Shown here: positions 1-26,200 of the stretch, one piece after another
Numbering within the stretch: the first letter of the stretch is position 1
How the letters are laid out: each line of letters opens with the position of its first letter
Assembly (NCBI GenBank): GCA_964016885.1
Contig: OZ024744.1
Location: 8,804,001 to 8,868,000 of the forward strand
Length of the DNA stretch: 64,000 nucleotides
Source of the DNA: Eledone cirrhosa
Lineage: Eukaryota
Reading direction: 5' to 3'
Translations under genes and position numbers: made by a program
The notes under the pieces: generated by a model
The model's database searches: none
Seen by the model: the letters and a program-made list of their open reading frames with translations, nothing else
What the model was told of the DNA's origin: nothing

Positions 1-541
1 GCTTCTGTCATCTTACCATCCCACTCCTACCGACTAGCCTCAGTGTCACGTGATTGATTCTTTAGAATCTACCATTTGACCAGTGACAGCGAGATGTTCA
101 GTGCATGGAATCCAGTCCCCGCTAGCTGTTCCATTTACCGAATTATTATTATTTTTATATGAGTCCCCAGTGTCCGCGCATTGCCTGGAGACTTAGCTGA
201 GAATAGACCTCCCTGATGACGCAATGAATTCTCAACAGTTTATTACGTAACTGTCTTTATCCCATTGCAGAAACTAATTAGTTGGAGTGAAAATTTTAGT
301 AAGTAAGTTAATTTTTAAAAAGTTTTTTTAATTTTCTTATTTTACGTCTTTTATATTATTGTTCTGCATCCTCCTGCATTGAACCACCTAGGTACTATGA
401 CATATCCTGTGTATTTGCTGACATTAGCGTACATCTGTGCGCATATGTTAGTAGATATACTATATTCTCTATATTTATCTCCAAATCACTTTGTCTAGCA
501 AACCTGCCAAAACCACTACTAAATTTTTGGTGTGTTAGTAG
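1..541 (+). repeat. Reference monomer (541 bp, arbitrary phase)
   Basis: First full period; the next copy starts at 542. About 202 of 541 bases are G+C by hand count. It contains AT-rich blocks at 141-160 and 290-360. Confidence 0.98.
209..287 (+). ncRNA. Type I hammerhead ribozyme-like motif (monomer 1 copy), predicted cleavage after U283
   Basis: CTCC (209-212) pairs with GGAG (284-287) as stem I. CTGATGA is at 213-219. GCAATG (221-226) pairs with CATTGC (263-268) as stem II, enclosing ACAGTT (235-240)/AACTGT (249-254). GAAA is at 270-273. A273-C274-T275 pair with A280-G281-T282 as stem III with loop AATT. The NUH triplet is GTT at 281-283. Deviations are the C220/A269 mismatch at positions 10.1/11.1 and GUU rather than GUC/GUA. 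Confidence 0.75.
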
Positions 542-3500
542 GCTTCTGTCATCTTACCATCCCACTCCTACCGACTAGCCTCATTGTCACGTGATTGATT
601 CTTTAGAATCTACCATTTGACCAGTGACAGCGAGATTTTCAGTGCATGGAATCCAGTCCCCGCTAGCTGTTCCATTTACCGAATTATTATTATTTTTATA
701 TGAGTCCCCAGTGTGCGCGCATTGGCTGGAGACTTAGCTGAGAATAGACCTCCCTGATGACGCAATGAATTCTCAACAGTTTATTACGTAACAGTCTTTA
801 TCCCATTGCAGAAACTAATTAGTTGGAGTGAAAATTTTAGTAAAAAGTTAATTTTAAAAAATTTTTTTTTAAATTTCTTATTTTACGTCTTTTATATTAT
901 TGTTCTGCATCCTCCTGCATTGAACCACCTAGGTACTATGACATAACCTGTGTATTTGCTGACATTAGCGTACATCTGTGCGCATATGTTAGTAGATATA
1001 CTAAATTCTCTATATTTATCTCCAAATCACTTTGTCGAGCAAACCTGCCAAAACCACTACTAAATTTTTGGTGTGTTAGTAGGCTTCTGTCATCTTACCA
1101 TCCCACTCCTACCGACTAGCCTCATTGTCACGTGATTGATTCTTTAGAATCTACCATTTGACCAGTGACAGCGAGATTTTGAGTGCATGGAATCCAGTCC
1201 CCGCTAGCTGTTCCATTTACCGAATTATTATTATTTTTATATGAGTCCCCAGTGTCCGCGCATTGCCTGGAGACTTAGCTGAGAATAGACCTCCCTGATG
1301 ACGCAATGAATTCTCAACAGTTTATTACGTAACTGTCTTTATCCCATTGCAGAAACTAATTAGTTGGAGTGAACATTTTAGTAAGTAAGTTAATTTTTAA
1401 AAAATTTTTTAAATCTTCTTATTTTACGTCTTTTATATTATTGTTCTGCATCCTCCTGCATTGAACCACCTAGGTACTATGACATAACCTGTGTATTTGC
1501 TGACATTAGCGTACATCTGTGCGCATATGTTAGTAGATATACTAAATTCTCTATATTTATCTCCAAATCACTTTGTCGAGTAAACCTGCCAAAACCACTA
1601 CTAAATTTTTGGTGTGTTAGTAGGCTTCTGTCATCTTACCATCCCACTCCTACCGACTAGCCTCAGTGTCACGTGATTGATTTTTTAGAATCTACCATTT
1701 GACCAGTGACAGCGAGATTTTCAGTGCATGGAATCCAGTCCCCGCTAGCTGTTCCATTTACCGAATTATTATTATTTTTATATGAGTCCCCAGTGTCCGC
1801 GCATTGCCTGGAGACTTAGCTGAGAATAGACCTCCCTGATGACGCAATGAATTCTCAACAGTTTATTACGTAACTGTCTTTATCCCATTGCAGAAACTAA
1901 TTAGTTGGAGTGAAAATTTTAGTAAGTAAGTTAATTTTTAAAAAGTTTTTTTAATTTTCTTATTTTACGTCTTTTATATTATTGTTCTGCATCCTCCTGC
2001 ATTGAACCACCAAGGTACTATGACATAACCTGTGTATTTGCTGACATCAGCGTACATCTGTGCGCATATGTTAGTAGATATACGAAATTCTCTATATTTA
2101 TCTCCAAATCACTTTGTCGAGCAAACCTGCCAAAACCAGTACTAAATTTTTGGTGTGTTAGTAGGCTTCTGTCATCTTACCATCCCACTCCTACCGACTA
2201 GCCTCAGTGTCACGTGATTGATTCTTTAGAATCTACCATTTGACCAGTGACAGCGAGATGTTCAGTGCATGGAATCCAGTCCCCGCTAGCTGTTCCATTT
2301 ACCGAATTATTATTATTTTTATATGAGTCCCCAGTGTCCGCGCATTGCCTGGAGACTTAGCTGAGAATAGACCTACTGATGACGCAATGAATTCTCAACA
2401 GTTTATTACGTAACTGTCTTTATCCCATTGCAGAAACTAATTAGTTGCAGTGAAAATTTTAGTAAGTTAATTTTTTAAAAATTTTTTAAAATTTTCTTAT
2501 TTTACGTCTTTTATATTATTGTTCTGCATCCTCCTGCATTGAACCACCTAGGTACTATGACATATCCTGTGTATTTGCTGACATTAGCGTCCATCTGTGC
2601 GCATATGTTAGTAGATATACTAAATTCTCTATATTTATCTCCAAATCACTTTGTCGAGCAAACCTGCCAAAACCACTACTAAATTTTTGGTGTGTTAGTA
2701 GGCTTCTGTCATCTTACCATCCCACTCCTACCGACTAGCCTGAGTGTCACGTGATTGATTCTTTAGAATCTACCATTTGACCAGTGACAGCGAGATTTTC
2801 AGTGCATGGAATCCAGTCCCCGCTAGCTGTTCCATTTACCGAATTATTATTATTTTTATATGAGTCCCCAGTGTCCGCGCATTGCTTGGAGACTTAGCTG
2901 AGAATAGACCTCCCTGATGACGCAATGAATTCTCAACAGTTTATTACGTAACTGTCTTTATCCCATTGCAGAAACTAATTAGTTGGAGTGAACATTTTAG
3001 TAAGTTAATTTTTAAAAAATTTTTTTAAATCTTCTTATTTTACGTCTTTTATATTATTGTTCTGCATCCTCCTGCATTGAACCACCTAGGTACTATGACA
3101 TAACCTGTGTATTTGCTGACATTAGCGTACATCTGTGCGCATATGTTAGTAGATATACTAAATTCTCTATATATATCTCCAAATCACTTTGTCGAGCAAA
3201 CCTGCCAAAACCACTACTAAATTTTTGGTGTGTTAGTAGGCTTCTGTCATCTTACCATCCCACTCCTACCGACTAGCCTCATTGTCACGTGATTGATTCT
3301 TTAGAATCTACCATTTGACCAGTGACAGCGAGATTTTCAGTGCATGGAATCCAGTCCCCGCTAGCTGTTCCATTTACCGAATTATTATTATTTTTATATG
3401 AGTCCCCAGTGTCCGCGCATTGCCTGGAGACTTAGCTGAGAATAGACCTCCCTGATGGCGCAATGAATTCTCAACAGTTTATTAAGTAACTGTCTTTATC

Positions 3501-5403
3501 CCATTGCAGAAACTAATTAGTTGGAGTGAAAATTTTAGTAAGTAAGTTAATTTTTTAAACTTTTTTTAAAATTTTCTTATTTTACGTCTTTTATATTATT
3601 GTTCTGCATCCTCCTGCATTGAACCACCTAGGTACTATGACATAACCTGTGTATTTGCTGACATTAGCGTACATCTGTGCACATATGTTAGTAGATATAC
3701 TAAATTCTCTATATTTATATCCAAATCACTTTGTCTAGCAAACCTTCCAAAACCACTACTAAATTTTTGGTGTGTTAGTAGGCTTCTGTCATCTTACCAT
3801 CCCACTCCTACCGACTAGCCTCAGTGTCACGTGATTGATTCTTTAGAATCTACCATTTGACCAGTGACAGCGAGATTTTCAGTGCATGGAATCCAGTCCC
3901 CGCTAGCTGTTCCATTTACCGAATTATTATTATTTTTATATGAGTCCCCAGTGTCCGCGCATTGCCTGGAGACTTAGCTGAGAATAGACCTCCCTGATGA
4001 CGCAATGAATTCTCAACAGTTTATTACGTAACTGTCTTTATCCCATTGCAGAAACTAATTAGTTGGAGTGAACATTTTAGTAAGTAAGTTCATTTTTAAA
4101 AAGTTTTTTTAATTTTCTTATTTTACGTCTTTTATATTATTGTTCTGCATCCTCCTGCATTGAACCACCTAGGTACTATGACATAACCTGTGTATTTGCT
4201 GACATTAGCGTACATCTGTGCGCATATGTTAGTAGATATACTAAATTCTCTATATTTATCTCCAAATCTCTTTGTCGAGTAAACCTGCCAAAACCACTAC
4301 TAAATTTTTGGTTTGTTAGTAGGCTTCTGTCATCTTACCATCCCACTCCTACCGACTAGCCTCAGTGTCACGTGATTGATTTTTTAGAATCTACCATTTG
4401 ACCAGTGACAGCGAGATTTTCAGTGCATGGAATCCAGTCCCCGCTAGCTGTTCCATTTACCGAATTATTATTATTTTTATATGAGTCCCCAGTGTCCGCG
4501 CATTGCCTGGAGACTTAGCTGAGAATAGACCTCCCTGATGACGCAATGAATGCTCAACAGTTTATTACGTAACTGTCTTTATACCATTGCAGAAACTAAT
4601 TAGTTGGAGTGAAAATTTTAGTAAGTAAGTTAATTTTTAAAAAGTTTTTTTAATTTTCTTATTTTACGTCTTTTATATTATTGTTCTGCATCCTCCTGCA
4701 TTGAACCACCTAGGTACTATGACATAACCTGTGTATTTGCTGACATCAGCGTACATCTGTGCGCATATGTTAGTAGATATACGAAATTCTCTATATTTAT
4801 CTCCAAATCACTTTGTCGAGCAAACCTGCCAAAACCAGTACTAAATTTTTGGTGTGTTAGTAGGCTTCTGTCATCTTACCATCCCACTCCTACCGACTAG
4901 CCTCAGTGTCACGTGATTGATTCTTTAGAATCTACCATTTGACCAGTGACAGCGAGATTTTCAGTGCATGGAATCCAGTCCCCGCTAGCTGTTCCATTTA
5001 CCGAATTATTATTATTTTTATATGAGTCCCCAGTGTCCGCGCATTGCCTAGAGACTTAGCTGAGAATAGACCTCCCTGATGACGCAATGAATTCTCAATA
5101 GTTTATTAAGTAACTCTCTTTATCCCATTGCAGAAACTAATTAGTTGGAGTGAAAATTTTATTAAAAAGTTAATTTTTAAAATTTTTTTAAAATTTTCTT
5201 CTTTTACGTCTTATATATTATTGTTCTGCATCCTCCTGCATTGAACCACCTAGGTACTATGACATAACCTGTGTATTTGCTGACATTAGCGTACATCTGT
5301 GCGCATATGTTAGTAGATATACTAAATTCTCTATATTTATCTCCAAATCACTTTGTCTAGCAAACCTTCCAAAACCACTACTAAATTTTTGGTGTGTTAG
5401 TAG

Positions 5404-8104
5404 GCTTCTGTCATCTTACCATCCCACTCCTGCCGACTAGCCTCATTGTCACGTGATTGATTCTTTAGAATCTACCATTTGACCAGTGACAGCGAGATTT
5501 TCAGTGCATGGAATCCAGTCCCCGCTAGCTGTTCCATTTACCGAATTATTATTATTTTTATATGAGTCCCCAGTGTCCGCGCATTGCCTGGAGACTTAGC
5601 TGAGAATAGACCTCCCTGATGACGCAATGAATGCTCAACAGTTTATTACGTAACTGTCTTTATACCATTGCAGAAACTAATTAGTTGGAGTGAAAATTTT
5701 AGTAAGTAAGTTAATTTTTAAAAATTTTTTTTAATTTTCTTATTTTACGTCTTTTATATTATTGTTCTGCATCCTCCTGCATTGAACCACCTAGGTACTA
5801 TGACATAACCTGTGTATTTGCTGACATCAGCGTACATCTGTGCGCATATGTTAGTAGATATACGAAATTCTCTATATTTATCTCCAAATCACTTTGTCGA
5901 GCAAACCTGCCAAAACCAGTACTAAATTTTTGGTGTGTTAGTAGGCTTCTGTCATCTTACCATCCCACTCCTACCGACTAGCCTCAGTGTCACGTGATTG
6001 ATTCTTTAGAATCTACCATTTGACCAGTGACAGCGAGATTTTCAGTGCATGGAATCCAGTCCCCGCTAGCTGTTCCATTTACCGAATTATTATTATTTTT
6101 ATATGAGTCCCCAGTGTCCGCGCATTGCCTAGAGACTTAGCTGAGAATAGACCTCCCTGATGACGCAATGAATTCTCAATAGTTTATTAAGTAACTGTCT
6201 TTATCCCATTGCAGAAACTAATTAGTTGGAGTGAAAATTTTATTAAAAAGTTAATTTTTAAAATTTTTTTTAAATTTTCTTCTTTTACGTCTTATATATT
6301 ATTGTTCTGCATCCTCCTGCATTGAACCACCTAGGTACTATGACATAACCTGTGTATTTGCTGACATTAGCGTACATCTGTGCGCATATGTTAGTAGATA
6401 TACTAAATTCTCTATATTTATCTCCAAATCACTTTGTCTAGCAAACCTTCCAAAACCACTACTAAATTTTTGGTGTGTTAGTAGGCTTCTGTCATCTTAC
6501 CATCCCACTCCTACCGACTAGCCTCATTGTCACGTGATTGATTCTTTAGAATCTACCATTTGACCAGTGACAGCGAGATTTTCAGTGCATGGAATCCAGT
6601 CCCCGCTAGCTGTTCCATTTACCGAATTATTATTATTTTTATATGAGTCCCCAGTGTCCGCGCATTGCCTGGAGACTTAGCTGAGAATAGACCTCCCTGA
6701 TGACGCAATGAATTCTCAACAGTTTATTAAGTAACTGTCTTTATCCCATTGCAGAAACTAATTAGTTGGAGTGAAAATTTTAGTAAAAAGTTAATTTTTT
6801 TAAATTTTTTTTTAATTTTCTTATTTTACGTCTTTTATATTATTGTTCTGCATCCTCCTGCATTGAACCACCTAGGTACTATGACATAACCTGTGTATTT
6901 GCTGACATTAGCGTACATCTGTGCGCATATGTTAGTAGATATACTAAATTCTCTATATTTATATCCAAATCACTTTGTCGAGCAAACCTGCCAAAACCAC
7001 TACTAAATTTTTGGTGTGTTAGTAGGCTTCTGTCATCTTACCATCCCACTCCTACCGACTAGCCTCAGTGTCACGTGATTGATTCTTTAGAATCTACCAT
7101 TTGACCAGTGACAGCGAGATTTTCAGTGCATGGAATCCAGTCCCCGCTAGCTGTTCCGTTTACCGAATTATTATTATTTTTATATGAGTCCCCAGTGTCC
7201 GCGCATTGCCTGGAGACTTAGCTGAGCATAGACCTCCCTGATGACGCAATGAATTCTCAACAGTTTATTAAGTAACTGTCTTTATCCCATTGCAGAAACT
7301 AATTAGTTGCAGTGAAAATTTTAGTAAGTTAATTTTTTAAAAATCTTTTAAAATTTTCTTATTTTACGTCTTTTATATTATTGTTCTGCATCCTCCTGCA
7401 TTGAACCACCTAGGTACTATGACATATCCTGTGTATTTGCTGACATTAGCGTCCATCTGTGCGCATATGTTAGTAGATATACTAAATTCTCTATATTTAT
7501 CTCCAAATCACTTTGTCGAGCAAACCTGCCAAAACCACTACTAAATTTTTGGTGTGTTAGTAGGCTTCTGTCATCTTACCATCCCACTCCTACCGACTAG
7601 CCTGAGTGTCACGTGATTGATTCTTTAGAATCTACCATTTGACCAGTGACAGCGAGATTTTCAGTGCATGGAATCCAGTCCCCGCTAGCTGTTCCATTTA
7701 CCGAATTATTATTATTTTTATATGAGTCCCCAGTGTCCGCGCATTGCCTGGAGACTTAGCTGAGAATAGACCTCCCTGATGACGCAATGAATTCTCAACA
7801 GTTTATTACGTAACTGTCTTTATCCCATTGCAGAAACTAATTAGTTGGAGTGAACATTTTAGTAAGTAAGTTAATTTTTAAAAAATTTTTTAAATCTTCT
7901 TATTTTACGTCTTTTATATTATTGTTCTGCATCCTCCTGCATTGAACCACCTAGGTACTATGACATAACCTGTGTATTTGCTGACATTAGCGTACATCTG
8001 TGCGCATATGTTAGTAGATATACTAAATTCTCTATATTTATCTTCAAATCACTTTGTCGAGTAAACCTGCCAAAACCACTACTAAATTTTTGGTGTGTTA
8101 GTAG
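5404..8104 (+). repeat. Canonical 5-monomer higher-order repeat unit A-B-C-D-E (2701 bp)
   Basis: A: agtaagtaag, catcagc, acgaaa, ccagtact. B: cctagag, caatag, ttttattaaaaag, cttcttt, tctagcaaaccttcc. C: tagtaaaaag, ttatatcc. D: ttccgttt, gagcat, gttgcag, catatcc, cgtccat, followed by gcctgag. E: gaacattt, aatcttctt, gtcgagt. Lengths are 541+540+541+538+541 = 2701. Confidence 0.8.
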
Positions 8105-11100
8105 GCTTCTGTCATCTTACCATCCCACTCCTACCGACTAGCCTCATTGTCACGTGATTGATTCTTTAGAATCTACCATTTGACCAGTGACAGCGAGATT
8201 TTCAGTGCATGGAATCCAGTCCCCGCTAGCTGTTCCATTTACCGAATTATTATTATTTTTATATGAGTCCCCAGTGTCCGCGCATTGCCTGGAGACTTAG
8301 CTGAGAATAGACCTCCCTGATGACGCAATGAATTCTCAACAGTTTATTACGTAACTGTCTTTATCCCATTGCAGAAACTAATTAGTTGGAGTGAAAATTT
8401 TAGTAAGTAAGTTAATTTTTAAAAAGTTTTTTTAATTTTCTTATTTTACGTCTTTTATATTATTGTTCTGCATCCTCCTGCATTGAACCACCTAGGTACT
8501 ATGACATAACCTGTGTATTTGCTGACATCAGCGTACATCTGTGCGCATATGTTAGTAGATATACGAAATTCTCTATATTTATCTCCAAATCACTTTGTCG
8601 AGCAAACCTGCCAAAACCAGTACTAAATTTTTGGTGTGTTAGTAGGCTTCTGTCATCTTACCATCCCACTCCTACCGACTAGCCTCAGTGTCACGTGATT
8701 GATTCTTTAGAATCTACCATTTGACCAATGACAGCGAGATTTTCAGTGCATGGAATCCAGTCCCCGCTAGCTGTTCCATTTACCGAATTATTATTATTTT
8801 TATATGAGTCCCCAGTGTCCGCGCATTGCCTAGAGACTTAGCTGAGAATAGACCTCCCTGATGACGCGATGAATTCTCAATAGTTTATTAAGTAACTGTC
8901 TTTATCCCATTGCAGAAACTAATTAGTTGCAGTGAAAATTTTATTAAAAAGTTAATTTTTAAAATTTTTTTTAAATTTTCTTCTTTTACGTCTTTTATAT
9001 TATTGTTCTGCATCCTCCTGCATTGAACCACCTAGGTACTATGACATAACCTGTGTATTTGCTGACATTAGCGTACATCTGTGCGCATATGTTAGTAGAT
9101 ATACTAAATTCTCTATATTTATCTCCAAATCACTTTGTCTAGCAAACCTTCCAAAACCACTACTAAATTTTTGGTGTGTTAGTAGGCTTCTGTAATCTTA
9201 CCATCCCACTCCTGCCGACTAGCCTCATTGTCACGTGATTGATTCTTTAGAATCTACCATTTGACCAGTGACAGCGAGATTTTCAGTGCATGGAATCCAG
9301 TCCCCGCTAGCTGTTCCATTTACCGAATTATTATTATTTTTATATGAGTCCCCAGTGTCCGCGCATTGCCTGGAGACTTAGCTGAGAATAGACCTCCCTG
9401 ATGACGCAATGAATTCTCAACAGTTTATTAAGTAACTGTCTTTATCCCATTGCAGAAACTAATTAGTTGGAGTGAAAATTTTAGTAAAAAGTTAATTTTT
9501 TTAAATTTTTTTTTAATTTTCTTATTTTACGTCTTTTATATTATTGTTCTGCATCCTCCTGCATTGAACCACCTAGGTACTATGACATAACCTGTGTATT
9601 TGCTGACATTAGCGTACATCTGTGCGCATATGTTAGTAGATATACTAAATTCTCTATATTTATATCCAAATCACTTTGTCGAGCAAACCTGCCAAAACCA
9701 CTACTAAATTTTTGGTGTGTTAGTAGGCTTCTGTCATCTTACCATCCCACTCCTACCGACTAGCCTCAGTGTCACGTGATTGATTCTTTAGAATCTACCA
9801 TTTGACCAGTGACAGCGAGATTTTCAGTGCATGGAATCCAGTCCCCGCTAGCTGTTCCATTTACCGAATTATTATTATTTTTATATGAGTCCCCAGTGTC
9901 CGCGCATTGCCTGGAGACTTAGCTGAGAATAGACCTCCCTGATGACGCAATGAATTCTCAACAGTTTATTACGTAACTGTCTTTATCCCATTGCAGAAAC
10001 TAATTAGTTGGAGTGAACATTTTAGTAAGTAAGTTAATTTTAAAAAAAATTTTTAAATCTTCTTATTTTACGTCTTTTATATTATTGTTCTGCATCCTCC
10101 TGCATTGAACCACCTAGGTACTATGACATAACCTGTGTATTTGCTGACATTAGCGTACATCTGTGCGCATATGTTAGTAGATATACTAAATTCTCTATAT
10201 TTATCTCCAAATCACTTTGTCGAGTAAACCTGCCAAAACCACTACTAAATTTTTGGTGTGTTAGTAGGCTTCTGTCATCTTACCATCCCACTCCTACCGA
10301 CTAGCCTCAGTGTCACGTGATTGATTTTTTAGAATCTACCATTTGACCAGTGACAGCGAGATTTTCAGTGCATGGAATCCAGTCCCCGCTAGCTGTTCCA
10401 TTTACCGAATTATTATTATTTTTATATGAGTCCCCAGTGTCCGCGCATTGCCTGGAGACTTAGCTGAGAATAGACCTCCCTGATGACGCAATGAATTCTC
10501 AACAGTTTATTACGTAACTGTCTTTATCCCATTGCAGAAACTAATTAGTTGGAGTGAAAATTTTAGTAAGTAAGTTAATTTTTAAAAAGTTTTTTTAATT
10601 TTCTTATTTTACGTCTTTTATATTATTGTTCTGCATCCTCCTGCATTGAACCACCTAGGTACTATGACATAACCTGTGTATTTGCTGACATTAGCGTACA
10701 TCTGTGCGCATATGTTAGTAGATATAGTAAATTCTCTATATTTATCTCCAAATCACTTTGTCTAGCAAACCTTCCAAAACCACTAATAAATTTTTGGTGT
10801 GTTAGTAGGCTTCTGTAATCTTACCATCCCACTCCTGCCGACTAGCCTCATTGTCACGTGATTGATTCTTTAGAATCTACCATTTGACCAGTGACAGCGA
10901 GATTTTCAGTGCATGGAATCCAGTCCCCGCTAGCTGTTCCATTTACCGAATTATTATTATTTTTATATGAGTCCCCAGTGTCCGCGCATTGCCTGGAGAC
11001 TTAGCTGAGAATAGACCTCCCTGATGACGCAATGAATTCTCAACAGTTTATTAAGTAACTGTCTTTATCCCATTGCAGAAACTAATTAGTTGCAGTGAAA

Positions 11101-14100
11101 ATTTTAGTAAGTTAATTTTTTAAAAATTTTTTAAAATTTTCTTATTTTACGTCTTTTATATTATTGTTCTGCATCCTCCTGCATTGAACCACCTAGGTAC
11201 TATGACATATCCTGTGTATTTGCTGACATTAGCGTCCATCTGTGCGCATATGTTAGTAGATATACTAAATTCTCTATATTTATCTCCAAATCACTTTGTC
11301 GAGCAAACCTGCCAAAACCACTACTAAATTTTTGGTGTGTTAGTAGGCTTCTGTCATCTTACCATCCCACTCCTACCGACTAGCCTGAGTGTCACGTGAT
11401 TGATTCTTTAGAATCTACCATTTGACCAGTGACAGCGAGATTTTCAGTGCATGGAATCCAGTCCCCGCTAGCTGTTCCATTTACCGAATTATTATTATTT
11501 TTATATGAGTCCCCAGTGTCCGCGCATTGCCTGGAGACTTAGCTGAGAATAGACCTCCCTGATGACGCAATGAATTCTCAACAGTTTATTACGTAACTGT
11601 CTTTATCCCATTGCAGAAACTAATTAGTTGGAGTGAACATTTTAGTAAGTAAGTTAATTTTTAAAAAATTTTTTAAATCTTCTTATTTTACGTCTTTTAT
11701 ATTATTGTTCTGCATCCTCCTGCATTGAACCACCTAGGTACTATGACATAACCTGTGTATTTGCTGACATCAGCGTACATCTGTGCGCATATGTTAGTAG
11801 ATATACGAAATTCTCTATATTTATCTCCAAATCACTTTGTCGAGCAAACCTGCCAAAACCAGTACTAAATTTTTGGTGTGTTAGTAGGCTTCTGTCATCT
11901 TACCATCCCACTCCTACCGACTAGCCTCGGTGTCACGTGATTGATTCTTTAGAATCTACCATTTGACCAGTGACAGCGAGATTTTCAGTGCATGGAATCC
12001 AGTCCCCGCTAGCTGTTCCATTTACCGAATTATTATTATTTTTATATGAGTCCCCAATGTCCGCGCATTGCCTAGAGACTTAGCTGAGAATAGACCTCCC
12101 TGATGACGCAATGAATTCTCAATAGTTTATTAAGTAACTGTCTTTATCCCATTGCAGAAACTAATTAGTTGGAGTGAAAATTTTATTAAAAAGTTAATTT
12201 TTAAAATTTTTTTTAAATTTTCTTCTTTTACGTCTTTTATATTATTGTTCTGCATCCTCCTGCATTGAACCACCTAGGTACTATGACATAACCTGTGTAT
12301 TTGCTGACATTAGCGTACATCTGTGCGCATATGTTAGTAGATATAGTAAATTCTCTATATTTATCTCCAAATCACTTTGTCTAGCAAACCTTCCAAAACC
12401 ACTACTAAATTTTTGGTGTGTTAGTAGGCTTCTGTAATCTTACCATCCCACTCCTGCCGACTAGCCTCATTGTCACGTGATTGATTCTTTAGAATCTACC
12501 ATTTGACCAGTGACAGCGAGATTTTCAGTGCATGGAATCCAGTCCCCGCTAGCTGTTCCATTTACCGAATTATTATTATTTTTATATGAGTCCCCAGTGT
12601 CCGCGCATTGCCTGGAGACTTAGCTGAGAATAGACCTCCCTGATGACGCAATGAATTCTCAACAGTTTATTAAGTAACTGTCTTTATCCCATTGCAGAAA
12701 CTAATTAGTTGCAGTGAAAATTTTAGTAAGTTAATTTTTTAAAAATTTTTTAAAATTTTCTTATTTTACGTCTTTTATATTATTGTTCTGCATCCTCCTG
12801 CATTGAACCACCTAGGTACTATGACATATCCTGTGTATTTGCTGACATTAGCGTCCATCTGTGCGCATATGTTAGTAGATATACTAAATTCTCTATATTT
12901 ATCTCCAAATCATTTTGTCGAGCAAACCTGCCAAAACCACTACTAAATTTTTGGTGTGTTAGTAGGCTTCTGTCATCTTACCATCCCACTCCTACCGACT
13001 AGCCTGAGTGTCACGTGATTGATTCTTTAGAATCTACCATTTGACCAGTGACAGCGAGATTTTCAGTGCATGGAATCCAGTCCCCGCTAGCTGTTCCATT
13101 TACCGAATTATTATTATTTTTATATGAGTCCCCAGTGTCCGCGCATTGCCTGGAGACTTAGCTGAGAATAGACCTCCCTGATGACGCAATGAATTCTCAA
13201 CAGTTTATTACGTAACTGTCTTTATCCCATTGCAGAAACTAATTAGTTGGAGTGAACATTTTAGTAAGTAAGTTAATTTTTAAAAAAATTTTTAAATCTT
13301 CTTATTTTACGTCTTTTATATTATTGTTCTGCATCCTCCTGCATTGAACCACCTAGGTACTATGACATAACCTGTGTATTTGCTGACATTAGCGTACATC
13401 TGTGCGCATATGTTAGTAGATATACTAAATTCTCTATATTTATCTCCAAATCACTTTGTCGAGCAAACCTGCCAAAACTAGTACTAAATTTTTGGTGTGT
13501 TAGTAGGCTTCTGTCACCTTACCATCCCACTCCTACCGACTAGCCTCAGTGTCACGTGATTGATTCTTTAGAATCTACCATTTGACCAGTGACAGCGAGA
13601 TTTTCAGTGCATGGAATCCAGTCCCCGCTAGCTGTTCCATTTACCGAATTATTATTATTTTTATATGAGTCCCCAGTGTCCGCGCATTGCCTAGAGACTT
13701 AGCTGAGAATAGACCTCCCTGATGACGCAATGAATTCTCAATAGTTTATTAAGTAACTGTCTTTATCCCATTGCAGAAACTAATTAGTTGGAATGAAAAT
13801 TTTATTAAAAAGTTAATTTTTAAAATTTTTATTTAAATTTTCTTCTTTTACGTCTTTTATATTATTGTTCTGCATCCTCCTGCATTGAACCACCTAGGTA
13901 CTATGACATAACGTGTGTATTTGCTGACATTAGCGTACATCTGTGCGCATATGTTAGTAGATATACTAAATTCTCTATATTTATCTCCAAATCACTTTGT
14001 CTAGCAAACCTTCCAAAACCACTACTAAATTTTTGGTGTGTTAGTAGGCTTCTGTCATCTTACCATCCCACTCCTGCCGACTAGCCTCATTGTCACGTGA

Positions 14101-17100
14101 TTGATTCTTTAGAATCTACCATTTGACCAGTGACAGCGAGATTTTCAGTGCATGGAATCCAGTCCCCGTTAGCTGTTCCATTTACCGAATTATTATTATT
14201 TTTGTATGAGTCCCCAGTGTCCGCGCATTGCCTGGAGACTTAGCTGAGAATAGACCTCCCTGATGACGCAATGAATTCTCAACAGTTTATTAAGTAACTG
14301 TCTTTATCCCATTGCAGAAACTAATTAGTTGGAGTGAAAATTTTAGTAAAAAGTTAATTTTTTTAAATTTTTTTTTAATTTTCTTATTTTACGTCTTTTA
14401 TATTATTGTTCTGCATCCTCCTGCATTGAACCACCTAGGTACTATGACATAACCTGTGTATTTGCTGACATTAGCGTACATCTGTGCGCATATGTTAGTA
14501 GATATACTAAATTCTCTATATTTATATCCAAATCACTTTGTCGAGCAAACCTGCCAAAACCACTACTAAATTTTTGGTGTGTTAGTAGGCTTCTGTCATC
14601 TTACCATCCCACTCCTACCGACTAGCCTCAGTGTCACGTGATTGATTCTTTAGAATCTACCATTTGACCAGTGACAGCGAGATTTTCAGTGCATGGAATC
14701 CAGTCCCCGCTAGCTGTTCCGTTTACCGAATTATTATTATTTTTATATGTGTCCCCAGTGTCCGCGCATTGCCTGGAGACTTAGCTGAGCATAGACCTCC
14801 CTGATGACGCAATGAATTCTCAACAGTTTATTAAGTAACTGTCTTTATCCCATTGCAGAAACTAATTAGTTGCAGTGAAAATTTTAGTAAGTTAATTTTT
14901 TTTAAATTTTTTAAAATTTTCTTATTTTACGTCTTTTATATTATTGTTCTGCATCCTCCTGCATTGAACCACCTAGGTACTATGACATATCCTGTGTATT
15001 TGCTGACATTAGCGTCCATCTGTGCGCATATGTTAGTAGATATACTAAATTCTCTATATTTATCTCCAAATCACTTTGTCGAGCAAACCTGCCAAAACCA
15101 CTACTAAATTTTTGGTGTGTTAGTAGGCTTCTGTCATCTTACCATCCCACTCCTACCGACTAGCCTGAGTGTCACGTGATTGATTCTTTAGAATCTACCA
15201 TTTGACCAGTGACAGCGAGATTTTCAGTGCATGGAATCCAGTCCCCGCTAGCTGTTCCATTTACCGAATTATTATTATTTTTATATGAGTCCCCAGTGTC
15301 CGCGCATTGCCTGGAGACTTAGCTGAGAATAGACCTCCCTGATGACGCAATGAATTCTCAACAGTTTATTACGTAACTGTCTTTATCCCATTGCAGAAAC
15401 TAATTAGTTGGAGTGAACATTTTAGTAAGTAAGTTAATTTTTAAAAAATTTTTTAAATCTTCTTATTTTACGTCTTTTATATTATTGTTCTGCATCCTCC
15501 TGCATTGAACCACCTAGGTACTATGACATAACCTGTGTATTTGCTGACATTAGCGTACATCTGTGCGCATATGTTAGTAGATATACTAAATTCTCTATAT
15601 TTATCTCCAAATCACTTTGTCTAGCAAACCTTCCAAAACCACTACTAAATTTTTGGTGTGTTAGTAGGCTTCTGTCATCTTACCATCCCACTCCTGCCGA
15701 CTAGCCTCATTGTCACGTGATTGATTCTTTAGAATCTACCATTTGACCAGTGACAGCGAGATTTTCAGTGCATGGAATCCAGTCCCCGCTAGCTGTTCCA
15801 TTTACCGAATTATTATTATTTTTATATGAGTCCCCAGTGTCCGCGCATTGCCTGGAGACTTAGCTGAGAATAGACCTCCCTGATGACGCAATGAATTCTC
15901 AACGGTTTATTAAGTAACTGTCTTTATCCCATTGCAGAAACTATTTAGTTGGAGTGAAAATTTTAGTAAAAAGTTAATTTTTTTAAATTTTTTTTTAATT
16001 TTCTTATTTTGCGTCTTTTATATTATTGTTCTGTATCCTCCTGCATTGAACCACCTAGGTACTATGACATAACCTGTGTATTTGCTGACATTAGGGTACA
16101 TCTGTGCGCATATGTTAGTAGATATACTAAATTCTCTATATTTATATCCAAATCCCTTTGTCGAGCAAACCTGCCAAAACCACTACTAAATTTTTGGTGT
16201 GTTAGTAGGCTTCTGTCATCTTACCATCCCACTCCTACCGACTAGCCTCAGTGTCACGTGATTGATTCTTTAGAATCTACCATTTGACCAGTGACAGCGA
16301 GATTTTCAGTGCATGGAATCCAGTCCCCGCTAGCTGTTCCGTTTACCGAATTATTATTATTTTTATATGAGTCCCCAGTGTCCGCGCATTGCCTGGAGAC
16401 TTAGCTGAGCATAGACCTCCCTGATGACGCAATGAATTCTCAACAGTTTATTAAGTAACTGTCTTTATCCCATTGCAGAAACTAATTAGTTGCAGTGAAA
16501 ATTTTAGTAAGTTAATTTTTTAAAAATTTTTTTAAATTTTATTATTTTACGTCTTTTATATTATTGTTCTGCATCCTCCTGCATTGAACCACCTAGGTAC
16601 TATGACATATCCTGTGTATTTGCTGACATTAGCGTCCATCTGTGCGCATATGTTAGTAGATATACTAAATTCTCTATATTTATCTCCAAATCACTTTGTC
16701 GAGCAAACCTGCCAAAACCAGTACTAAATTTTTGGTGTGTTAGTAGGCTTCTGTCATCTTACCATCCCACTCCTACCGACTAGCCTCGGTGTCACGTGAT
16801 TGATTCTTTAGAATCTACCATTTGACCAGTGACAGCGAGATTTTCAGTGCATGGAATCCAGTCCCCGCTAGCTGTTCCATTTACCGAATTATTATTATTT
16901 TTATATGAGTCCCCAGTGTCCGCGCATTGCCTAGAGACTTAGCTGAGAATAGACCTCCCTGATGACGCAATGAATTCTCAATAGTTTATTAAGTAAGTGT
17001 CTTTATCCCATTGCAGAAACTAATTAGTTGGAGTGAAAATTTTATTAAAAAGTTAATTTTTAAAATTTTTTTTAAATTTTCTTCTTTTACGTCTTTTATA

Positions 17101-20100
17101 TTATTGTTCTGCATCCTCCTGCATTGAACCACCTAGGTACTATGACATAACCTGTGTATTTGCTGACATTAGCGTACATCTGTGCGCATATGTTAGTAGA
17201 TATAGTAAATTCTCTATATTTATCTCCAAATCACTTTGTCTAGCAAACCTTCCAAAACCACTACTAAATTTTTGGTGTGTTAGTAGGCTTCTGTAATCTT
17301 ACCATCCCACTCCTGCCGACTAGCCTCATTGTCACGTGATTGATTCTTTAGAATCTACCATTTGACCAGTGACAGCGAGATTTTCAGTGCATGGAATCCA
17401 GTCCCCGCTAGCTGTTCCATTTACCGAATTATTATTATTTTTATATGAGTCCCCAGTGTCCGCGCATTGCCTGGAGACTTAGCTGAGAATAGACCTCCCT
17501 GATGACGCAATGAATTCTCAACAGTTTATTAAGTAACTGTCTTTATCCCATTGCAGAAACTAATTAGTTGCAGTGAAAATTTTAGTAAGTTAATTTTTTA
17601 AAAATTTTTTTAAATTTTCTTATTTTACGTCTTTTATATTATTGTTCTGCATCCTCCTGCATTGAACCACCTAGGTACTATGACATATCCTGTGTATTTG
17701 CTGACATTAGCGTCCATCTGTGCGCATATGTTAGTAGATATACTAAATTCTCTATATTTATCTCCAAATCACTTTGTCGAGCAAACCTGCCAAAACCACT
17801 ACTAAATTTTTGGTGTGTTAGTAGGCTTCTGTCATCTTACCATCCCACTCCTACCGACTAGCCTGAGTGTCACGTGATTGATTCTTTAGAATCTACCATT
17901 TGACCAGTGACAGCGAGATTTTCAGTGCATGGAATCCAGTCCCCGCTAGCTGTTCCATTTACCGAATTATTATTATTTTTATATGAGTCCCCAGTGTCCG
18001 CGCATTGCCTGGAGACTTAGCTGAGAATAGACCTCCCTGATGACGCAATGAATTCTCAACAGTTTATTACGTAACTGTCTTTATCCCATTGCAGAAACTA
18101 ATTAGTTGGAGTGAACATTTTAGTAAGTAAGTTAATTTTTAAAAAATTTTTTAAATCTTCTTATTTTACGTCTTTTATATTATTGTTCTGCATCCTCCTG
18201 CATTGAACCACCTAGGTACTATGACATAACCTGTGTATTTGCTGACATTAGCGTACATCTGTGCGCATATGTTAGTAGATATACTAAATTCTCTATATTT
18301 ATCTCCAAATCACTTTGTCGAGCAAACCTGCCAAAACTAGTACTAAATTTTTGGTGTGTTAGTAGGCTTCTGTCACCTTACCATCCCACTCCTACCGACT
18401 AGCCTCAGTGTCACGTGATTGATTCTTTAGAATCTACCATTTGACCAGTGACAGCGAGATTTTCAGTGCATGGAATTCAGTCCCCGCTAGCTGTTCCATT
18501 TACCGAATTATTATTATTTTTATATGAGTCCCCAGTGTCCGCGCATTGCCTAGAGACTTAGCTGAGAATAGACCTCCCTGATGACGCAATGAATTCTCAA
18601 TAGTTTATTAAGTAACTGTCTTTATCCCATTGCAGAAACTAATTAGTTGGAATGAAAATTTTATTAAAAAGTTAATTTTTAAAATTTTTATTTAAATTTT
18701 CTTCTTTTACGTCTTTTATATTATTGTTCTGCATCCTCCTGCATTGAACCACCTAGGTACTATGACATAACCTGTGTATTTGCTGACATTAGCGTACATC
18801 TGTGCGCATATGTTAGTAGATATACTAAATTCTCTATATTTATATCCAAATCACTTTGTCGAGCAAACCTGCCAAAACCACTACTAAATTTTTGGTGTGT
18901 TAGTAGGCTTCTGTCATCTTACCATCCCACTCCTACCGACTAGCCTCAGTGTCACGTGATTGATTCTTTAGAATCTACCATTTGACCAGTGACAGCGAGA
19001 TTTTCAGTGCATGGAATCCAGTCCCCGCTAGCTGTTCCGTTTACCGAATTATTATTATTTTTATATGAGTCCCCAGTGTCCGCGCATTGCCTGGAGACTT
19101 AGCTGAGCATAGACCTCCCTGATGACGCAATGAATTCTCAACAGTTTATTAAGTAACTGTCTTTATCCCATTGCAGAAACTAATTAGTTGCAGTGAAAAT
19201 TTTAGTAAGTTAATTTTTAAAAAATTTTTTAAAATTTTCTTATTTTACGTCTTTTATATTATTGTTCTGCATCCTCCTGCATTGAACCACCTAGGTACTA
19301 TGACATATCCTGTGTATTTGCTGACATTAGCGTCCATCTGTGCGCATATGTTAGTAGATATACTAAATTCTCTATATTTATCTCCAAATCACTTTGTCGA
19401 GCAAACCTGCCAAAACCACTACTAAATTTTTGGTGTGTTAGTAGGCTTCTGTCATCTTACCATCCCACTCCTACCGACTAGCCTGAGTGTCACGTGATTG
19501 ATTCTTTAGAATCTACCATTTGACCAGTGACAGCGAGATTTTCAGTGCATGGAATCCAGTCCCCGCTAGCTGTTCCATTTACCGAATTATTATTATTTTT
19601 ATATGAGTCCCCAGTGTCCGCGCATTGCCTGGAGACTTAGCTGAGAATAGACCTCCCTGATGACGCAATGAATTCTCAACAGTTTATTACGTAACTGTCT
19701 TTATCCCATTGCAGAAACTAATTAGTTGGAGTGAACATTTTAGTAAGTAAGTTAATTTTTAAAAAATTTTTTAAATCTTCTTATTTTACGTCTTTTATAT
19801 TATTGTTCTGCATCCTCCTGCATTCAACCACCTAGGTACTATGACATAACCTGTGTATTTGCTGACATTAGCGTACATCTGTGCGCATATGTTAGTAGAT
19901 ATACTAAATTCTCTATATTTATCTCCAAATCACTTTGTCGAGTAAACCTGCCAAAACCACTACTAAATTTTTGGTGTGTTAGTAGGCTTCTGTCATCTTA
20001 CCATCCCACTCCTACCGACTAGCCTCAGTGTCACGTGATTGATTTTTTAGAATCTACCATTTGACCAGTGACAGCGAGATTTTCAGTGCATGGAATCCAG

Positions 20101-20526
20101 TCCCCGCTAGCTGTTCTATTTACCGAATTATTATTATTTTTATATGAGTCCCCAGTGTCCGCGCATTGCCTGGAGACTTAGCTGAGAATAGACCTCCCTG
20201 ATGACGCAATGAATTCTCAACAGTTTATTACGTAACTGTCTTTATCCCATTGCAGAAACTAATTAGTTGGAGTGAAAATTTTAGTAAGTAAGTTAATTTT
20301 TAAAAAGTTTTTTTAATTTTCTTATTTTACGTCTTTTATATTATTGTTCTGCATCCTACTGCATTGAACCACCTAGGTACTATGACATAACCTGTGTATT
20401 TGCTGACATTAGCGTACATCTGTGCGCATATGTTAGTAGATATACTAAATTCTCTATATTTATATCCAAATCACTTTGTCGAGCAAACCTGCCAAAACCA
20501 CTACTAAATTTTTGGTGTGTTAGTAG

Positions 20527-23227
20527 GCTTCTGTCATCTTACCATCCCACTCCTACCGACTAGCCTCAGTGTCACGTGATTGATTCTTTAGAATCTACCA
20601 TTTGACCAGTGACAGCGAGATTTTCAGTGCATGGAATCCAGTCCCCGCTAGCTGTTCCGTTTACCGAATTATTATTATTTTTATATGAGTCCACAGTGTC
20701 CGCGCATTGCCTGGAGACTTAGCTGAGCATAGACCTCCCTGATGACGCAATGAATTCTCAACAGTTTATTAAGTAACTGTCTTTATCCCATTGCAGAAAC
20801 TAATTAGTTGCAGTGAAAATTTTAGTAAGTTAATTTTTAAAAAATTTTTTAAAATTTTCTTATTTTACGTCTTTTATATTATTGTTCTGCATCCTCCTGC
20901 ATTGAACCACCTAGGTACTATGACATATCCTGTGTATTTGCTGACATTAGCGTCCATCTGTGCGCATATGTTAGTAGATATACTAAATTCTCTATATTTA
21001 TCTCCAAATCACTTTGTCGAGCAAACCTGCCAAAACCACTACTAAATTTTTGGTGTGTTAGTAGGCTTCTGTCATCTTACCATCCCACTCCTACCGACTA
21101 GCCTGAGTGTCACGTGATTGATTCTTTAGAATCTACCATTTGACCAGTGACAGCGAGATTTTCAGTGCATGGAATCCAGTCCCCGCTAGCTGTTCCATTT
21201 ACCGAATTATTATTATTTTTATATGAGTCCCCAGTGTCCGCGCATTGCCTGGAGACTTAGCTGAGAATAGACCTCCCTGATGACGCAATGAATTCTCAAC
21301 AGTTTATTACGTAACTGTCTTTATCCCATTGCAGAAACTAATTAGTTGGAGTGAACATTTTAGTAAGTAAGTTAATTTTAAAAAAAATTTTTAAATCTTC
21401 TTATTTTACGTCTTTTATATTATTGTTCTGCATCCTCCTGCATTGAACCACCTAGGTACTATGACATAACCTGTGTATTTGCTGATATTAGCGTACATCT
21501 GTGCGCATATGTTAGTAGATATACTAAATTCTCTATATTTATCTCCAAATCACTTTGTCGAGTAAACCTGCCAAAACCACTACTAAATTTTTGGTGTGTT
21601 AGTAGGCTTCTGTCATCTTACCATCCCACTCCTACCGACTAGCCTCAGTGTCACGTGATTGATTTTTTAGAATCTACCATTTGACCAGTGACAGCGAGAT
21701 TTTCAGTGCATGGAATCCAGTCCCCGCTAGCTGTTCCATTTACCGAATTATTATTATTTTTATATGAGTCCCCAGTGTCCGCGCATTGCCTGGAGACTTA
21801 GCTGAGAATAGACCTCCCTGATGACGCAATGAATTCTCAACAGTTTATTACGTAACTGTCTTTATCCCATTGCAGAAACTAATTAGTTGGAGTGAAAATT
21901 TTAGTAAGTAAGTTAATTTTTAAAAAGTTTTTTTAATTTTCTTATTTTACGTCTTTTATATTATTGTTCTGCATCCTCCTGCATTGAACCACCTAGGTAC
22001 TATGACATAACCTGTGTATTTGCTGACATCAGCGTACATCTGTGCGCATATGTTAGTAGATATACGAAATTCTCTATATTTATCTCCAAATCACTTTGTC
22101 GAGCAAACCTGCCAAAACCAGTACTAAATTTTTGGTGTGTTAGTAGGCTTCTGTCATCTTACCATCCCACTCCTACCGACTAGCCTCAGTGTCACGTGAT
22201 TGATTCTTTAGAATCTACCATTTGACCAGTGACAGCGAGATTTTCAGTGCATGGAATCCAGTCCCCGCTAGCTGTTCCATTTACCGAATTATTATTATTT
22301 TTATATGAGTCCCCAGTGTCCGCGCATTGCCTAGAGACTTAGCTGAGAATAGACCTCCCTGATGACGCAATGAATTCTCAATAGTTTATTAAGTAACTGT
22401 CTTTATCCCATTGCAGAAACTAATTAGTTGGAGTGAAAATTTTATTAAAAAGTTAATTTTTAAAATTTTTTTTAAATTTTCTTCTTTTACGTCTTTTATA
22501 TTATTGTTCTGCATCCTCCTGCATTGAACCACCTAGGTACTATGACATAACCTGTGTATTTGCTGACATTAGCGTACATCTGTGCGCATATGTTAGTAGA
22601 TATACTAAATTCTCTATATTTATCTCCAAATCACTTTGTCTAGCAAACCTTCCAAAACCACTACTAAATTTTTGGTGTGTTAGTAGGCTTCTGTCATCTT
22701 ACCATCCCACTCCTGCCGACTAGCCTCATTGTCACGTGATTGATTCTTTAGAATCTACCATTTGACCAGTGACAGCGAGATTTTCAGTGCATGGAATCCA
22801 GTCCCCGCTAGCTGTTCCATTTACCGAATTATTATTATTTTTATATGAGTCCCCAGTGTCCGCGCATTGCCTGGAGACTTAGCTGAGAATAGACCTCCCT
22901 GATGACGCAATGAATTCTCAACAGTTTATTAAGTAACTGTCTTTATCCCATTGCAGAAACTAATTAGTTGGAGTGAAAATTTTAGTAAAAAGTTAATTTT
23001 TTAAAATTTTTTTTTAATTTTCTTATTTTACGTCTTTTATATTATTGTTCTGCATCCTCCTGCATTGAACCACCTAGGTACTATGACATAACCTGTGTAT
23101 TTGCTGACATTAGCGTACATCTGTGCGCATATGTTAGTAGATATACTAAATTCTCTATATTTATATCCAAATCACTTTGTCGAGCAAACCTGCCAAAACC
23201 ACTACTAAATTTTTGGTGTGTTAGTAG
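20527..23227 (+). repeat. Second intact 5-mer unit, read in phase D-E-A-B-C (2701 bp)
   Basis: The same diagnostic variants occur in the same cyclic order as in 5404-8104. Confidence 0.8.
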
Positions 23228-26200
23228 GCTTCTGTCATCTTACCATCCCACTCCTACCGACTAGCCTCAGTGTCACGTGATTGATTCTTTAGAATCTACC
23301 ATTTGACCAGTGACAGCGAGATTTTCAGTGCATGGAATCCAGTCCCCGCTAGCTGTTCCGTTTACCGAATTATTATTATTTTTATATGAGTCCCCAGTGT
23401 CCGCGCATTGCCTGGAGACTTAGCTGAGCATAGACCTCCCTGATGACGCAATGAATTCTCAACAGTTTATTACGTAACTGTCTTTATCCCATTGCAGAAA
23501 CTAATTAGTTGGAGTGAAAATTTTATTAAAAAGTTAATTTTTAAAATTTTTTTTAAATTTTCTTCTTTTACGTCTTTTATATTATTGTTCTGCATCTTCC
23601 TGCATTGAACCACCTAGGTACTATGACATAACCTGTGTATTTGCTGACATTAGCGTACATCTGTGCGCATATGTTAGTAGATATACTAAATTATCTATAT
23701 TTATCTCCAAATCACTTTGTCTAGCAAACCTTCCAAAACCACTACTAAATTTTTGGTGTGTTAGTAGGCTTCTGTCATCTTACCATCCCACTCCTGCCGA
23801 CTAGCCTCATTGTCACGTGATTGATTCTTTAGAATCTACCATTTGACCAGTGACAGCGAGATTTTCAGTGCATGGAATCCAGTCCCCGCTAGCTGTTCCA
23901 TTTACCGAATTATTATTATTTTTATATGAGTCCCCAGTGTCCGCGCATTGCCTGGAGACTTAGCTGAGAATAGACCTCCCTGATGACGCAATGAATTCTC
24001 AACAGTTTATTAAGTAACTGTCTTTATCCCATTGCAGAAACTAATTAGTTGGAGTGAAAATGTTAGTAAAAAGTTAATTTTTTTAAATTTTTTTTTAATT
24101 TTCTTATTTTACGTCTTTTATATTATTGTTCTGCATCCTCCTGCATTGAACCACCTAGGTACTATGACATAACCTGTGTATTTGCTGACATTAGCGTACA
24201 TCTGTGCGCATATGTTAGTAGATATACTAAATTCTCTATATTTATATCCAAATCACTTTGTCGAGCAAACCTGCCAAAACCACTACTAAATTTTTGGTGA
24301 GTTAGTAGGCTTCTGTCATCTTACCATCTCACTCCTACCGACTAGCCTCAGTGTCACGTGATTGATTCTTTAGAATCTACCATTTGACCAGTGAAAGCGA
24401 GATTTTCAGTGCATGGAATCCAGTCCCCGCTAGCTGTTCCGTTTACCGAATTATTATTATTTTTATATGAGTCCCCAGTGTCCGCGCATTGCCTGGAGAC
24501 TTAGCTGAGCATAGACCTCCCTGATGACGCAATGAAATCTCAACAGTTTATTAAGTAACTGTCTTTATCCCATTGCAGAAACTAATTAGTTGCAGTGAAA
24601 ATTTTAGTAAGTTAATTTTTTAAAAATTTTTTAAAATTTTCTTATTTTACGTCTTTTATATTATTGTTCTGCATCCTCCTGCATTGAACCACCTAGGTAC
24701 TATGACATAACCTGTGTATTTGCTGACATCAGCGTACATCTGTGCGCATATGTTAGTAGATATACGAAATTCTCTATATTTATCTCCAAATCACTTTGTC
24801 GAGCAAACCTGCCAAAACCAGTACTAAATTTTTGGTGTGTTAGTAGGCTTCTGTCATCTTACCATCCCACTCCTACCGACTAGCCTCAGTGTCACGTGAT
24901 TGATTCTTTAGAATCTACCATTTGACCAGTGACAGCGAGATTTTCAGTGCACGGAATCCAGTCCCCGCTAGCTGTTCCATTTACCGAATTATTATTATTT
25001 TTATATGAGTCCCCAGTGTCCGCGCATTGCCTAGAGACTTAGCTGAGAATAGACCTCCCTGATGACGCAATGAATTCTCAATAGTTTATTAAGTAACTGT
25101 CTTTATCCCATTGCAGAAACTAATTAGTTGGAGTGAAAATTTTATTAAAAAGTTAATTTTTTAAATTTTTTTTAAATTTTCTTCTTTTACGTCTTTTATA
25201 TTATTGTTCTGCATCCTCCTGCATTGAACCACCTAGGTACTATGACATAACCTGTGTATTTGCTGACATTAGCGTACATCTGTGCGCATATGTTAGTAGA
25301 TATACTAAATTCTCTATATTTATCTCCAAATCACTTTGTCTAGCAAACCTTCCAAAACCACTACTAAATTTTTGGTGTGTTAGTAGGCTTCTGTCATCTT
25401 ACCATCCCACTCCTGCCGACTAGCCTCATTGTCACGTGATTGATTCTTTAGAATCTACCATTTGACCAGTGACAGCGAGATTTTCAGTGCATGGAATCCA
25501 GTCCCCGCTAGCTGTTCCATTTACCGAATTATTATTATTTTTATATGAGTCCCCAGTGTCCGCGCATTGCCTGGAGACTTAGCTGAGAATAGACCTCCCT
25601 GATGACGCAATGAATTCTCAACAGTTTATTAAGTAACTGTCTTTATCCCATTGCAGAAACTAATTAGTTGGAGTGAAAATTTTAGTAAAAAGTTAATTTT
25701 TTTAAATTTTTTTTTAATTTTCTTATTTTACGTCTTTTATATTATTGTTCTGCATCCTCCTGCATTGAACCACCTAGGTACTATGACATAACCTGTGTAT
25801 TTGCTGACATTAGCGTACATCTGTGCGCATATGTTAGTAGATATACTAAATTCTCTATATTTATATCCAAATCACTTTGTCGAGCAAACCTGCCAAAACC
25901 AGTACTAAATTTTTGGTGTGTTAGTAGGCTTCTGTCATCTTACCATCCCACTCCTACCGACTAGCCTCAGTGTCACGTGATTGATTCTTTAGAATCTACC
26001 ATTTGACCAGTGACAGCGAGATTTTCAGTGCATGGAATCCAGTCCCCGCTAGCTGTTCCATTTACCGAATTATTATTATTTTTATATGAGTCCCCAGTGT
26101 CCGCGCATTGCCTAGAGACTTAGCTGAGAATAGACCTCCCTGATGACGCAATGAATTCTCAATAGTTTATTAAGTAACTGTCTTTATCCCATTGCAGAAA

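Follow-up and report, generated by a model that had tools for sequence, protein, structure and literature searches.

A non-coding tandem array of 541-bp units

The stretch of Eledone cirrhosa contig OZ024744.1 analysed here, 64,000 nt long and called the window in what follows, is one uninterrupted tandem array of 118 complete units of about 541 bp (1..64000, read on the + strand), as established by alignment of the units, a scan for stop-free stretches and tblastn. The units are 537–542 bp each, 92 of the 118 are distinct, and they share a mean identity of 97.1% at a GC content of about 37%. Positions 1..541 of the + strand serve as the reference unit, defined by the array analysis and by its fold as a circle relative to shuffled sequences; its boundary is arbitrary. 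The period limit of Tandem Repeats Finder is 500, so that an array of such units is missed by this program.

The array is non-coding. The longest stop-free stretch reaches 99 codons, and a Penelope-like protein had no tblastn match in the array, leaving the unit without a coding remnant. No tRNA was found in the window, and promoter-like sites occur at chance level (3 versus 4.0 expected) in a scan that is bacterial and unsuited to this DNA. A phage collection held no match to the unit, and four matches of 18–21 bases each in prokaryote genomes were set aside as chance.

About five subfamilies of units alternate along the array, and their order forms an irregular higher-order structure. Adjacent units are more different than a shuffled order gives (18.0 versus 15.6; 0 of 20,000 shuffles), near-identical neighbours are confined to one of 117 pairs, and blocks of 4–9 units recur at various lags, for example at positions 37268 and 48075. 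Because of this order and these recurring blocks, the array fits growth by DNA-level amplification, through duplication of multi-unit blocks, rather than by rolling-circle copying of a single monomer.

Folded as a circle, the unit beats its shuffled versions on both strands, with z −4.1 on the + strand, where 59% of the bases are paired, and z −3.3 on the − strand. A hairpin at 160-198, just upstream of the motif described below, scores at z of about −2 on the + strand and −2.5 on the − strand and is not strand-specific.

A type I hammerhead motif in every unit

On the + strand, each unit carries a type I hammerhead motif, with both catalytic boxes and three helices in the type I order; the − strand of the unit has no hammerhead motif. 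The features that define the type are the CUGANGA and GAAA boxes, an A15.1-U16.1 pair, an H17 other than G and the order of the helices, and all of them are present. The 5' strand of helix I (209..212) is predicted by folding to form 4 bp, which A207-U288 can extend across a bulged C208, and is followed by the box CUGAUGA, C3 to A9 (213..219). The C at 220, found in 117 of the 118 copies, can be read either as the extra nucleotide of Penelope-type hammerheads or as C10.1 of a C.A mismatch. Helix II (221..268) is predicted to consist of 6 bp, 221-226 with 263-268, opening into an internal loop (8x8) and, beyond it, another helix of 6 bp, 235-240 with 249-254, with pair probabilities of 0.99 and 0.97, respectively. 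An atypical A at 269, present in 118 of 118 copies, lies between helix II and G12 of the GAAA box (G12 to A15.1, 270..273). The segment 272..283 then contains A14, helix III (273-275 with 280-282), the loop AAUU (276-279) and U17, placing the cleavage site, as predicted from hammerhead geometry, at 283..284, after the GUU triplet 281-283 (U in all 118 copies) and directly before the 3' strand of helix I (284..287).

Several parts of this anatomy depart from the canonical form. The 10.1-11.1 pair next to G12, usually G-C, is missing, as C220 faces A269 in 117 of 118 copies, and the 6-bp helix I and 4-bp helix II that canonically allow contact between loops 1 and 2 are absent, the observed sizes being 4(-5) bp for helix I and 6 bp plus an internal loop for helix II. 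Since that pair and those helix sizes are lacking, we do not file the motif as a canonical hammerhead or as a proven retrozyme. In addition, U17 of the GUU site can pair with A14 as the outer pair of a 12-bp palindrome, which is non-productive. Cleavage at GUU is slower than at GUC or GUA. GUU is among the triplets listed as cleavable. On C.A at 10.1/11.1, or on this repeat, nothing appeared among titles and abstract openings, a coverage outside which most subscription papers lie. Junction variants like the C.A one may already have been described by Lunse et al. (2017). According to PMC3088659, U.U is the best-tolerated mispair at 10.1/11.1, and natural hammerheads with U.U at this place do occur.

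Could such a motif arise by chance in an AT-rich satellite? With Watson–Crick stems, the whole motif appeared in none of 20,000 shuffled units, and with G-U pairs allowed, none of 6,000 shuffles was as good as the observed motif. Looser descriptors, widened after the motif had been seen, were matched by 4 of 6,000 shuffles (helix I ≥4, II ≥4 and III ≥2) and, at the loosest level (I ≥3 and II ≥3), by 79 of 6,000; the two core boxes alone occurred in 1,442 of 6,000. It is thus the three helices in order around both boxes by which the motif exceeds chance, and the first-pass annotation was right to take the palindrome for the third helix of such a motif. The explanation that the motif is a chance look-alike and no ribozyme, its palindrome being neutral or a protein-binding site in the DNA, can draw on the frequency of the two boxes and on Rfam, which gave no match at the gathering threshold and nothing but miRNA and intron noise when E was relaxed to 10. 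At 4 of 4 control loci, Rfam failed to find the Penelope-type hammerheads as well. The ordered helices stand against the look-alike explanation, which we hold to be very unlikely. The core of the palindrome does resemble what we take to be a palindromic homeodomain site.

The palindrome and variation within the array

Positions 272-283 form a perfect 12-bp palindrome, reaching from A14 in the GAAA box as far as U17, the nucleotide at the cleavage site. It had been described as spanning the 3' part of GAAA through the cleavage triplet, with an intramolecular stem III of 3 bp and a 4-nt loop, and as nearly invariant with one exception near 15944, all of which agrees with our alignment: 117 of 118 copies have the exact palindrome, and a comparison of copies finds it broken solely at 15939..15950 (+ strand), by an A>T change at 15944. 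This constancy is nothing special, because the units are 97.1% identical throughout and 80 of 530 windows of 12 columns are equally invariant, with at most one deviation (415 of 544 unit columns are invariant). We therefore rejected near-invariance as a sign of selection, as it is ordinary within this array. Nor is the palindrome itself rare, a perfect 12-bp palindrome occurring somewhere in 2,796 of 20,000 shuffled units, which is another point for the look-alike explanation. Six of its 12 bases are symmetric merely by stem pairing; beyond these, a palindromic loop has a chance of about 0.067 and a U as H17 one of 0.43. Taken alone, the palindrome is weak evidence for a ribozyme.

The motif is fully intact in 89 of the 118 copies. 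Helix I is broken in 25, with G285C, which disrupts pairing of the 3' strand, accounting for 21 of them, and the core is changed in three. Twenty of the 21 G285C copies belong to one subfamily, which also carries a 3-bp deletion near 309-311. The share of polymorphic columns does not differ significantly between the motif (11 of 43) and the remaining columns (91 of 452; p 0.43), giving no sign of selection on the motif within the array, in a test of little power, since homogenisation would be expected to hide selection acting on single copies. The A/T tract at 290-335, which follows the predicted cleavage site directly and has T runs in its + strand, is the most variable segment of the unit.

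Relatives in other organisms

Small shares of the sequence words of the window occur in sequencing runs of eight further organisms, and in all four runs examined from other organisms (X5, X8, X10 and X12) contigs cover the motif region. A match of 150 bases in X10 contains 2 substitutions and 2 gaps, all of them outside the core, helix II, the palindrome and the 3' strand of helix I; among the differences listed, X10 is the only run for which an unchanged palindrome is shown. X8 and X12 have lost one C at 208 and with it the bulge, turning helix I into a contiguous 5 bp, and share A234G, which adds one pair to the second stem. The changes listed for X8, X10 and X12 thus fall in loops or extend helices, and this pattern, together with the unchanged core, would fit continued constraint. 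One X12 fragment has an insertion within the 3' strand of helix I, and the absence of X12 changes at 209-226 (0 of 18 positions versus 19 of 173 elsewhere) is not a significant depletion (p 0.22).

One well-covered contig of X5 has A224C in helix II with no compensating change, which speaks for the look-alike explanation. A loose end in X5 preserves, in exact register, the last part of the core box and then continues into a different 5' strand of helix II; changes of the kinds that would compensate for this occur among those counted for X5, where they are given without positions. One X5 contig resembles a diverged homologue in which both helix II and the second stem are different, and the match of one X8 contig starts precisely with the first base of helix I, at 209. 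A search of metagenomes with an exact 20-base pattern returned 0 matches.

A more telling RNA feature lies outside the motif. At 409..460, every unit contains a 22-bp hairpin with 5 G-U pairs that, compared with shuffled sequences, folds on the + strand only (−29.1 kcal/mol, z −6.85, versus −8.4 kcal/mol, z 0.09, on the − strand). X5 and X12 have eight changes in common in this hairpin, by which three pairs are kept as G-U, two are created and two are broken, for a total of 22 again. In a simulation, random changes kept the pair count with P of 0.004-0.017, the changes being events of one lineage and among the differences listed. This supports past or present selection on the + strand RNA, the same strand as that of the hammerhead, and counts against the look-alike explanation. 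As evidence of an RNA-level past, the hairpin is stronger than the palindrome.

Dimer and monomer folding

Descriptions of a palindromic helix III and of dimer cleavage in tandem repeats go back to 1988, reportedly to Forster et al., and further ones followed for Penelope-like elements, mosquito and axolotl; the dimer idea itself is not new. Published cases of dimer cleavage by way of such a helix III include the motifs of newt, axolotl, Penelope-like elements and Aedes, in agreement with the earlier statement that such a helix is typical of Penelope-like and of satellite or retrozyme hammerheads. The text of the PMC3088659 supplement, whose figures were poorly extracted, has no match to the palindrome of the window.

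Computed energies make it understandable why two motifs might be needed. The intermolecular 10-bp duplex is worth −9.0 kcal/mol versus +1.5 for the helix III hairpin, the pairs of which form in the monomer with a probability of about 0.1, and for two isolated motifs the nested double hammerhead reaches −41.0 kcal/mol versus −34.0 (2 x −17.0) for the monomer ground states. Precedents point the same way: helix II of axolotl HHR_Amex2 likewise has a basal mismatch, and this ribozyme is far more efficient in its dimeric form (PMC7229834), and a 10-bp dimer stem was drawn for an Aedes motif by Perreault et al. (PMC3088659). One could picture an active ribozyme that works only when two motifs have the 10-bp helix III in common; multimers would then be cut and monomers spared.

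Other calculations speak against such dependence. The lowest-energy cofold of two motifs (−43.6 kcal/mol) pairs A14 with U17 and is non-productive, and the gain of 7 kcal/mol in trans holds at 1 M and, by simple arithmetic, is about cancelled at micromolar RNA. Within a two-unit transcript (100-950), the cost above the free ensemble is +15.0 kcal/mol for the double hammerhead versus +13.8 for two monomer folds, +7.6 for one monomer fold and +7.8 for the outer dimer junction, and no pair of helix I is present in the free fold. The first-pass annotation had proposed that neighbouring motifs in a multimeric transcript pair with each other and that activity would depend on tandem organisation: a nested double hammerhead with a 10-bp helix can indeed be formed, and activity might depend on it, but in the two-unit transcript the double fold is no better than two monomers. 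Three defects did not enter that annotation: the C.A at the base of helix II, the possible pairing of U17 with A14, and the broken helix I of 25 copies. Nearest-neighbour energies model hammerhead junctions poorly, making folding weak evidence in either direction. Dimer cleavage through the palindromic helix III is, on these models, possible in this array, and a presently active ribozyme that depends on it strikes us as unlikely. Dimers were also proposed for the minimal hammerheads of Penelope-like elements, whose activity in vitro is low (Cervera and de la Pena 2014, PMC4209133), and among predicted dimer elements of Xenopus cleavage was seen in only one of nine (bioRxiv 10.64898/2026.07.22.740005).

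Alternatively, the motif might be active as a monomer that cleaves during transcription, with the palindromic loop incidental. Its helix III of 3 bp plus a tetraloop is longer than the 2-bp stem plus tetraloop of invertebrate hammerheads reported, in the accessible literature, to cleave as monomers; local folding (span ≤100 nt) gives helix I a probability of 0.95-0.97 and helix II one of 0.99, and a loop of 4 nt is palindromic with a chance of 0.067. The same local folding leaves helix III at 0.11, the motif lacks the helix sizes (6 bp for I, 4 bp for II) that canonically support a contact between loops 1 and 2, and the C.A junction and the GUU site weigh on a monomer too. We regard this alternative as distinctly unlikely.

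The same helix III next to a probable Penelope-like ORF

A metagenome search for both boxes plus the 10-nt palindrome returned 56 loci; as the pattern required the identical helix III, this demonstrates its occurrence, not an enrichment. Thirteen of the loci form one hammerhead family, unrelated to the window unit, and the other 43 lie outside this Penelope-type family, with no matching stem pair and none homologous to the window unit. Six of the thirteen have a helix I of 6-8 bp and a helix II of 8-9 bp, all with a GUA site. Two loci (L011:3208-5367, − strand, and L045:677-2836, + strand) contain an intact 720-aa ORF and, about 165 bases downstream of it, a type I hammerhead that is well formed. 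The 10-nt palindromic helix III of this element is identical to that of the window, from which the element differs in its helix I of 8 bp, its helix II of 9 bp with a G-U or G-C base, its GUA site and the adjacent ORF; there is no other similarity to the window unit.

Neither of the 720-aa ORFs has a Pfam match; their protein-atlas neighbours carry HTH_animal, GIY-YIG and RVT_1 domains. Motifs within the ORF look Penelope-like, and from these motifs and the clade descriptions in PMC8557442 the element probably belongs to the Hydra clade. As judged from sequence, a helix III identical in its 10 nt to that of the window is thus probably used by a Penelope-like element. A PDB match of a control ORF was due to chance only.

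An alignment of the thirteen-locus family reaches 86.8% pairing, with covariation not above that of shuffles; the 11 sequences aligned come from 10 of the 13 loci after exclusion of the near-duplicates L034, L041 and L045. Helix II failed to align between the window motif and the family model. The score that the family covariance model gives the window motif (18 bits, E 0.0006) was discarded as circular, the same boxes having selected the family. At L050, two such hammerhead motifs stand back to back on opposite strands, and four pattern matches outside the family (L026:3001-3053, L022:3001-3053, L051:3001-3053 and L054:699-750) may be hammerheads with bulged helices.

Comparison with known hammerhead repeats

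The window motif has the anatomy of a Penelope-like minimal hammerhead save for the extra A269. As in those described in the available text of PMC4209133, helix I has 4-5 bp, helix II is long, helix III and loop 3 are palindromic, and an extra nucleotide after A9 is followed by G-C. Unlike them, as far as that text goes, the motif has an A before G12 and an 8x8 loop plus a second stem in helix II, and it belongs to an array made up entirely of non-coding units, the window containing no ORF.

Retrozyme traits are also visible, namely tandem non-coding units each with a type I motif and a unit RNA that is, by computation, highly self-paired. Like the metazoan non-LTR retrozymes and the newt and axolotl satellite 2 in the accessible part of PMC7229834, the array has one hammerhead per unit, a low GC content (37%) and self-pairing, and its unit size and copy number lie inside the range of catalogued tandem hammerhead arrays (units of 51-972 bp, up to 300 units; bioRxiv 10.64898/2026.07.22.740005, part of the text). 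In contrast to retrozymes, as described in the sources available in part, the 541-bp unit exceeds the 170-400 nt of characterised circles, the motif lacks canonical helix sizes, and the order of the array indicates DNA-level amplification.

A further parallel is pDo500 of Dolichopoda cave crickets, likewise a satellite of about 500 bp with one hammerhead per unit that is common to related species, and for which single and double hammerhead folds were proposed (PMC2837043, available text). In the double fold of pDo500, stem III stays intramolecular. The pDo500 motif is, in the same partial text, measurably more conserved than the rest of its unit; that of the window is not.

Origin and present state of the motif

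We are highly confident that the window motif is a hammerhead by descent. From its sequence, it most likely descends from a Penelope-type or retrozyme hammerhead and would work like one. Our preferred reading, with a probability of roughly 0.57, is that a hammerhead of this type resides in a satellite that would now be spread by DNA recombination, and that its activity is weak or dead. The ancestral 541-bp unit would have moved, or been selected, as RNA before becoming a satellite: a read-through transcript of the + strand would have been cut after the 281-283 triplet into unit-length RNA, in which process two motifs could have shared the 10-bp helix III. Today, the array would grow through duplication of multi-unit blocks of DNA, with the motif carried along under no detectable selection, and the C.A junction, the GUU site and a helix I of 4 bp would leave little or no cleavage.

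The hammerhead ancestry in this reading is supported by a motif beyond chance, its anatomy, the identical 10-nt helix III in the family with the 720-aa ORF, the + strand hairpin and the relatives in other organisms; the lack of a sign of selection within the array, the order of the units and the single cleaving element among nine in Xenopus are in favour of its remaining parts. Counting against the preferred reading are the unchanged core in X10 and, as to the fold of the whole unit, the fact that the − strand also scores (z −3.3).

It seems to us scarcely probable that the motif is instead an active natural variant, one that cuts at GUU in spite of the C.A junction at the foot of helix II, with the full 12-bp palindrome acting as a brake on the dimer through A14-U17 pairing. 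If this were true, a satellite of at least 64 kb would still yield a 541-nt circular RNA that bears the conserved G-U hairpin, and would do so in several related species; units with a broken helix I would set the sizes of multimers, and an active C.A junction would mean that the descriptors used in genomic hammerhead searches need widening. The array also offers a way to ask if a repeat of the retrozyme type remains catalytic after turning into a large satellite, and it assembles natural variants at one locus: 21 copies with G285C, three with a changed core, one with a broken palindrome and, throughout, the unusual helix II junction.
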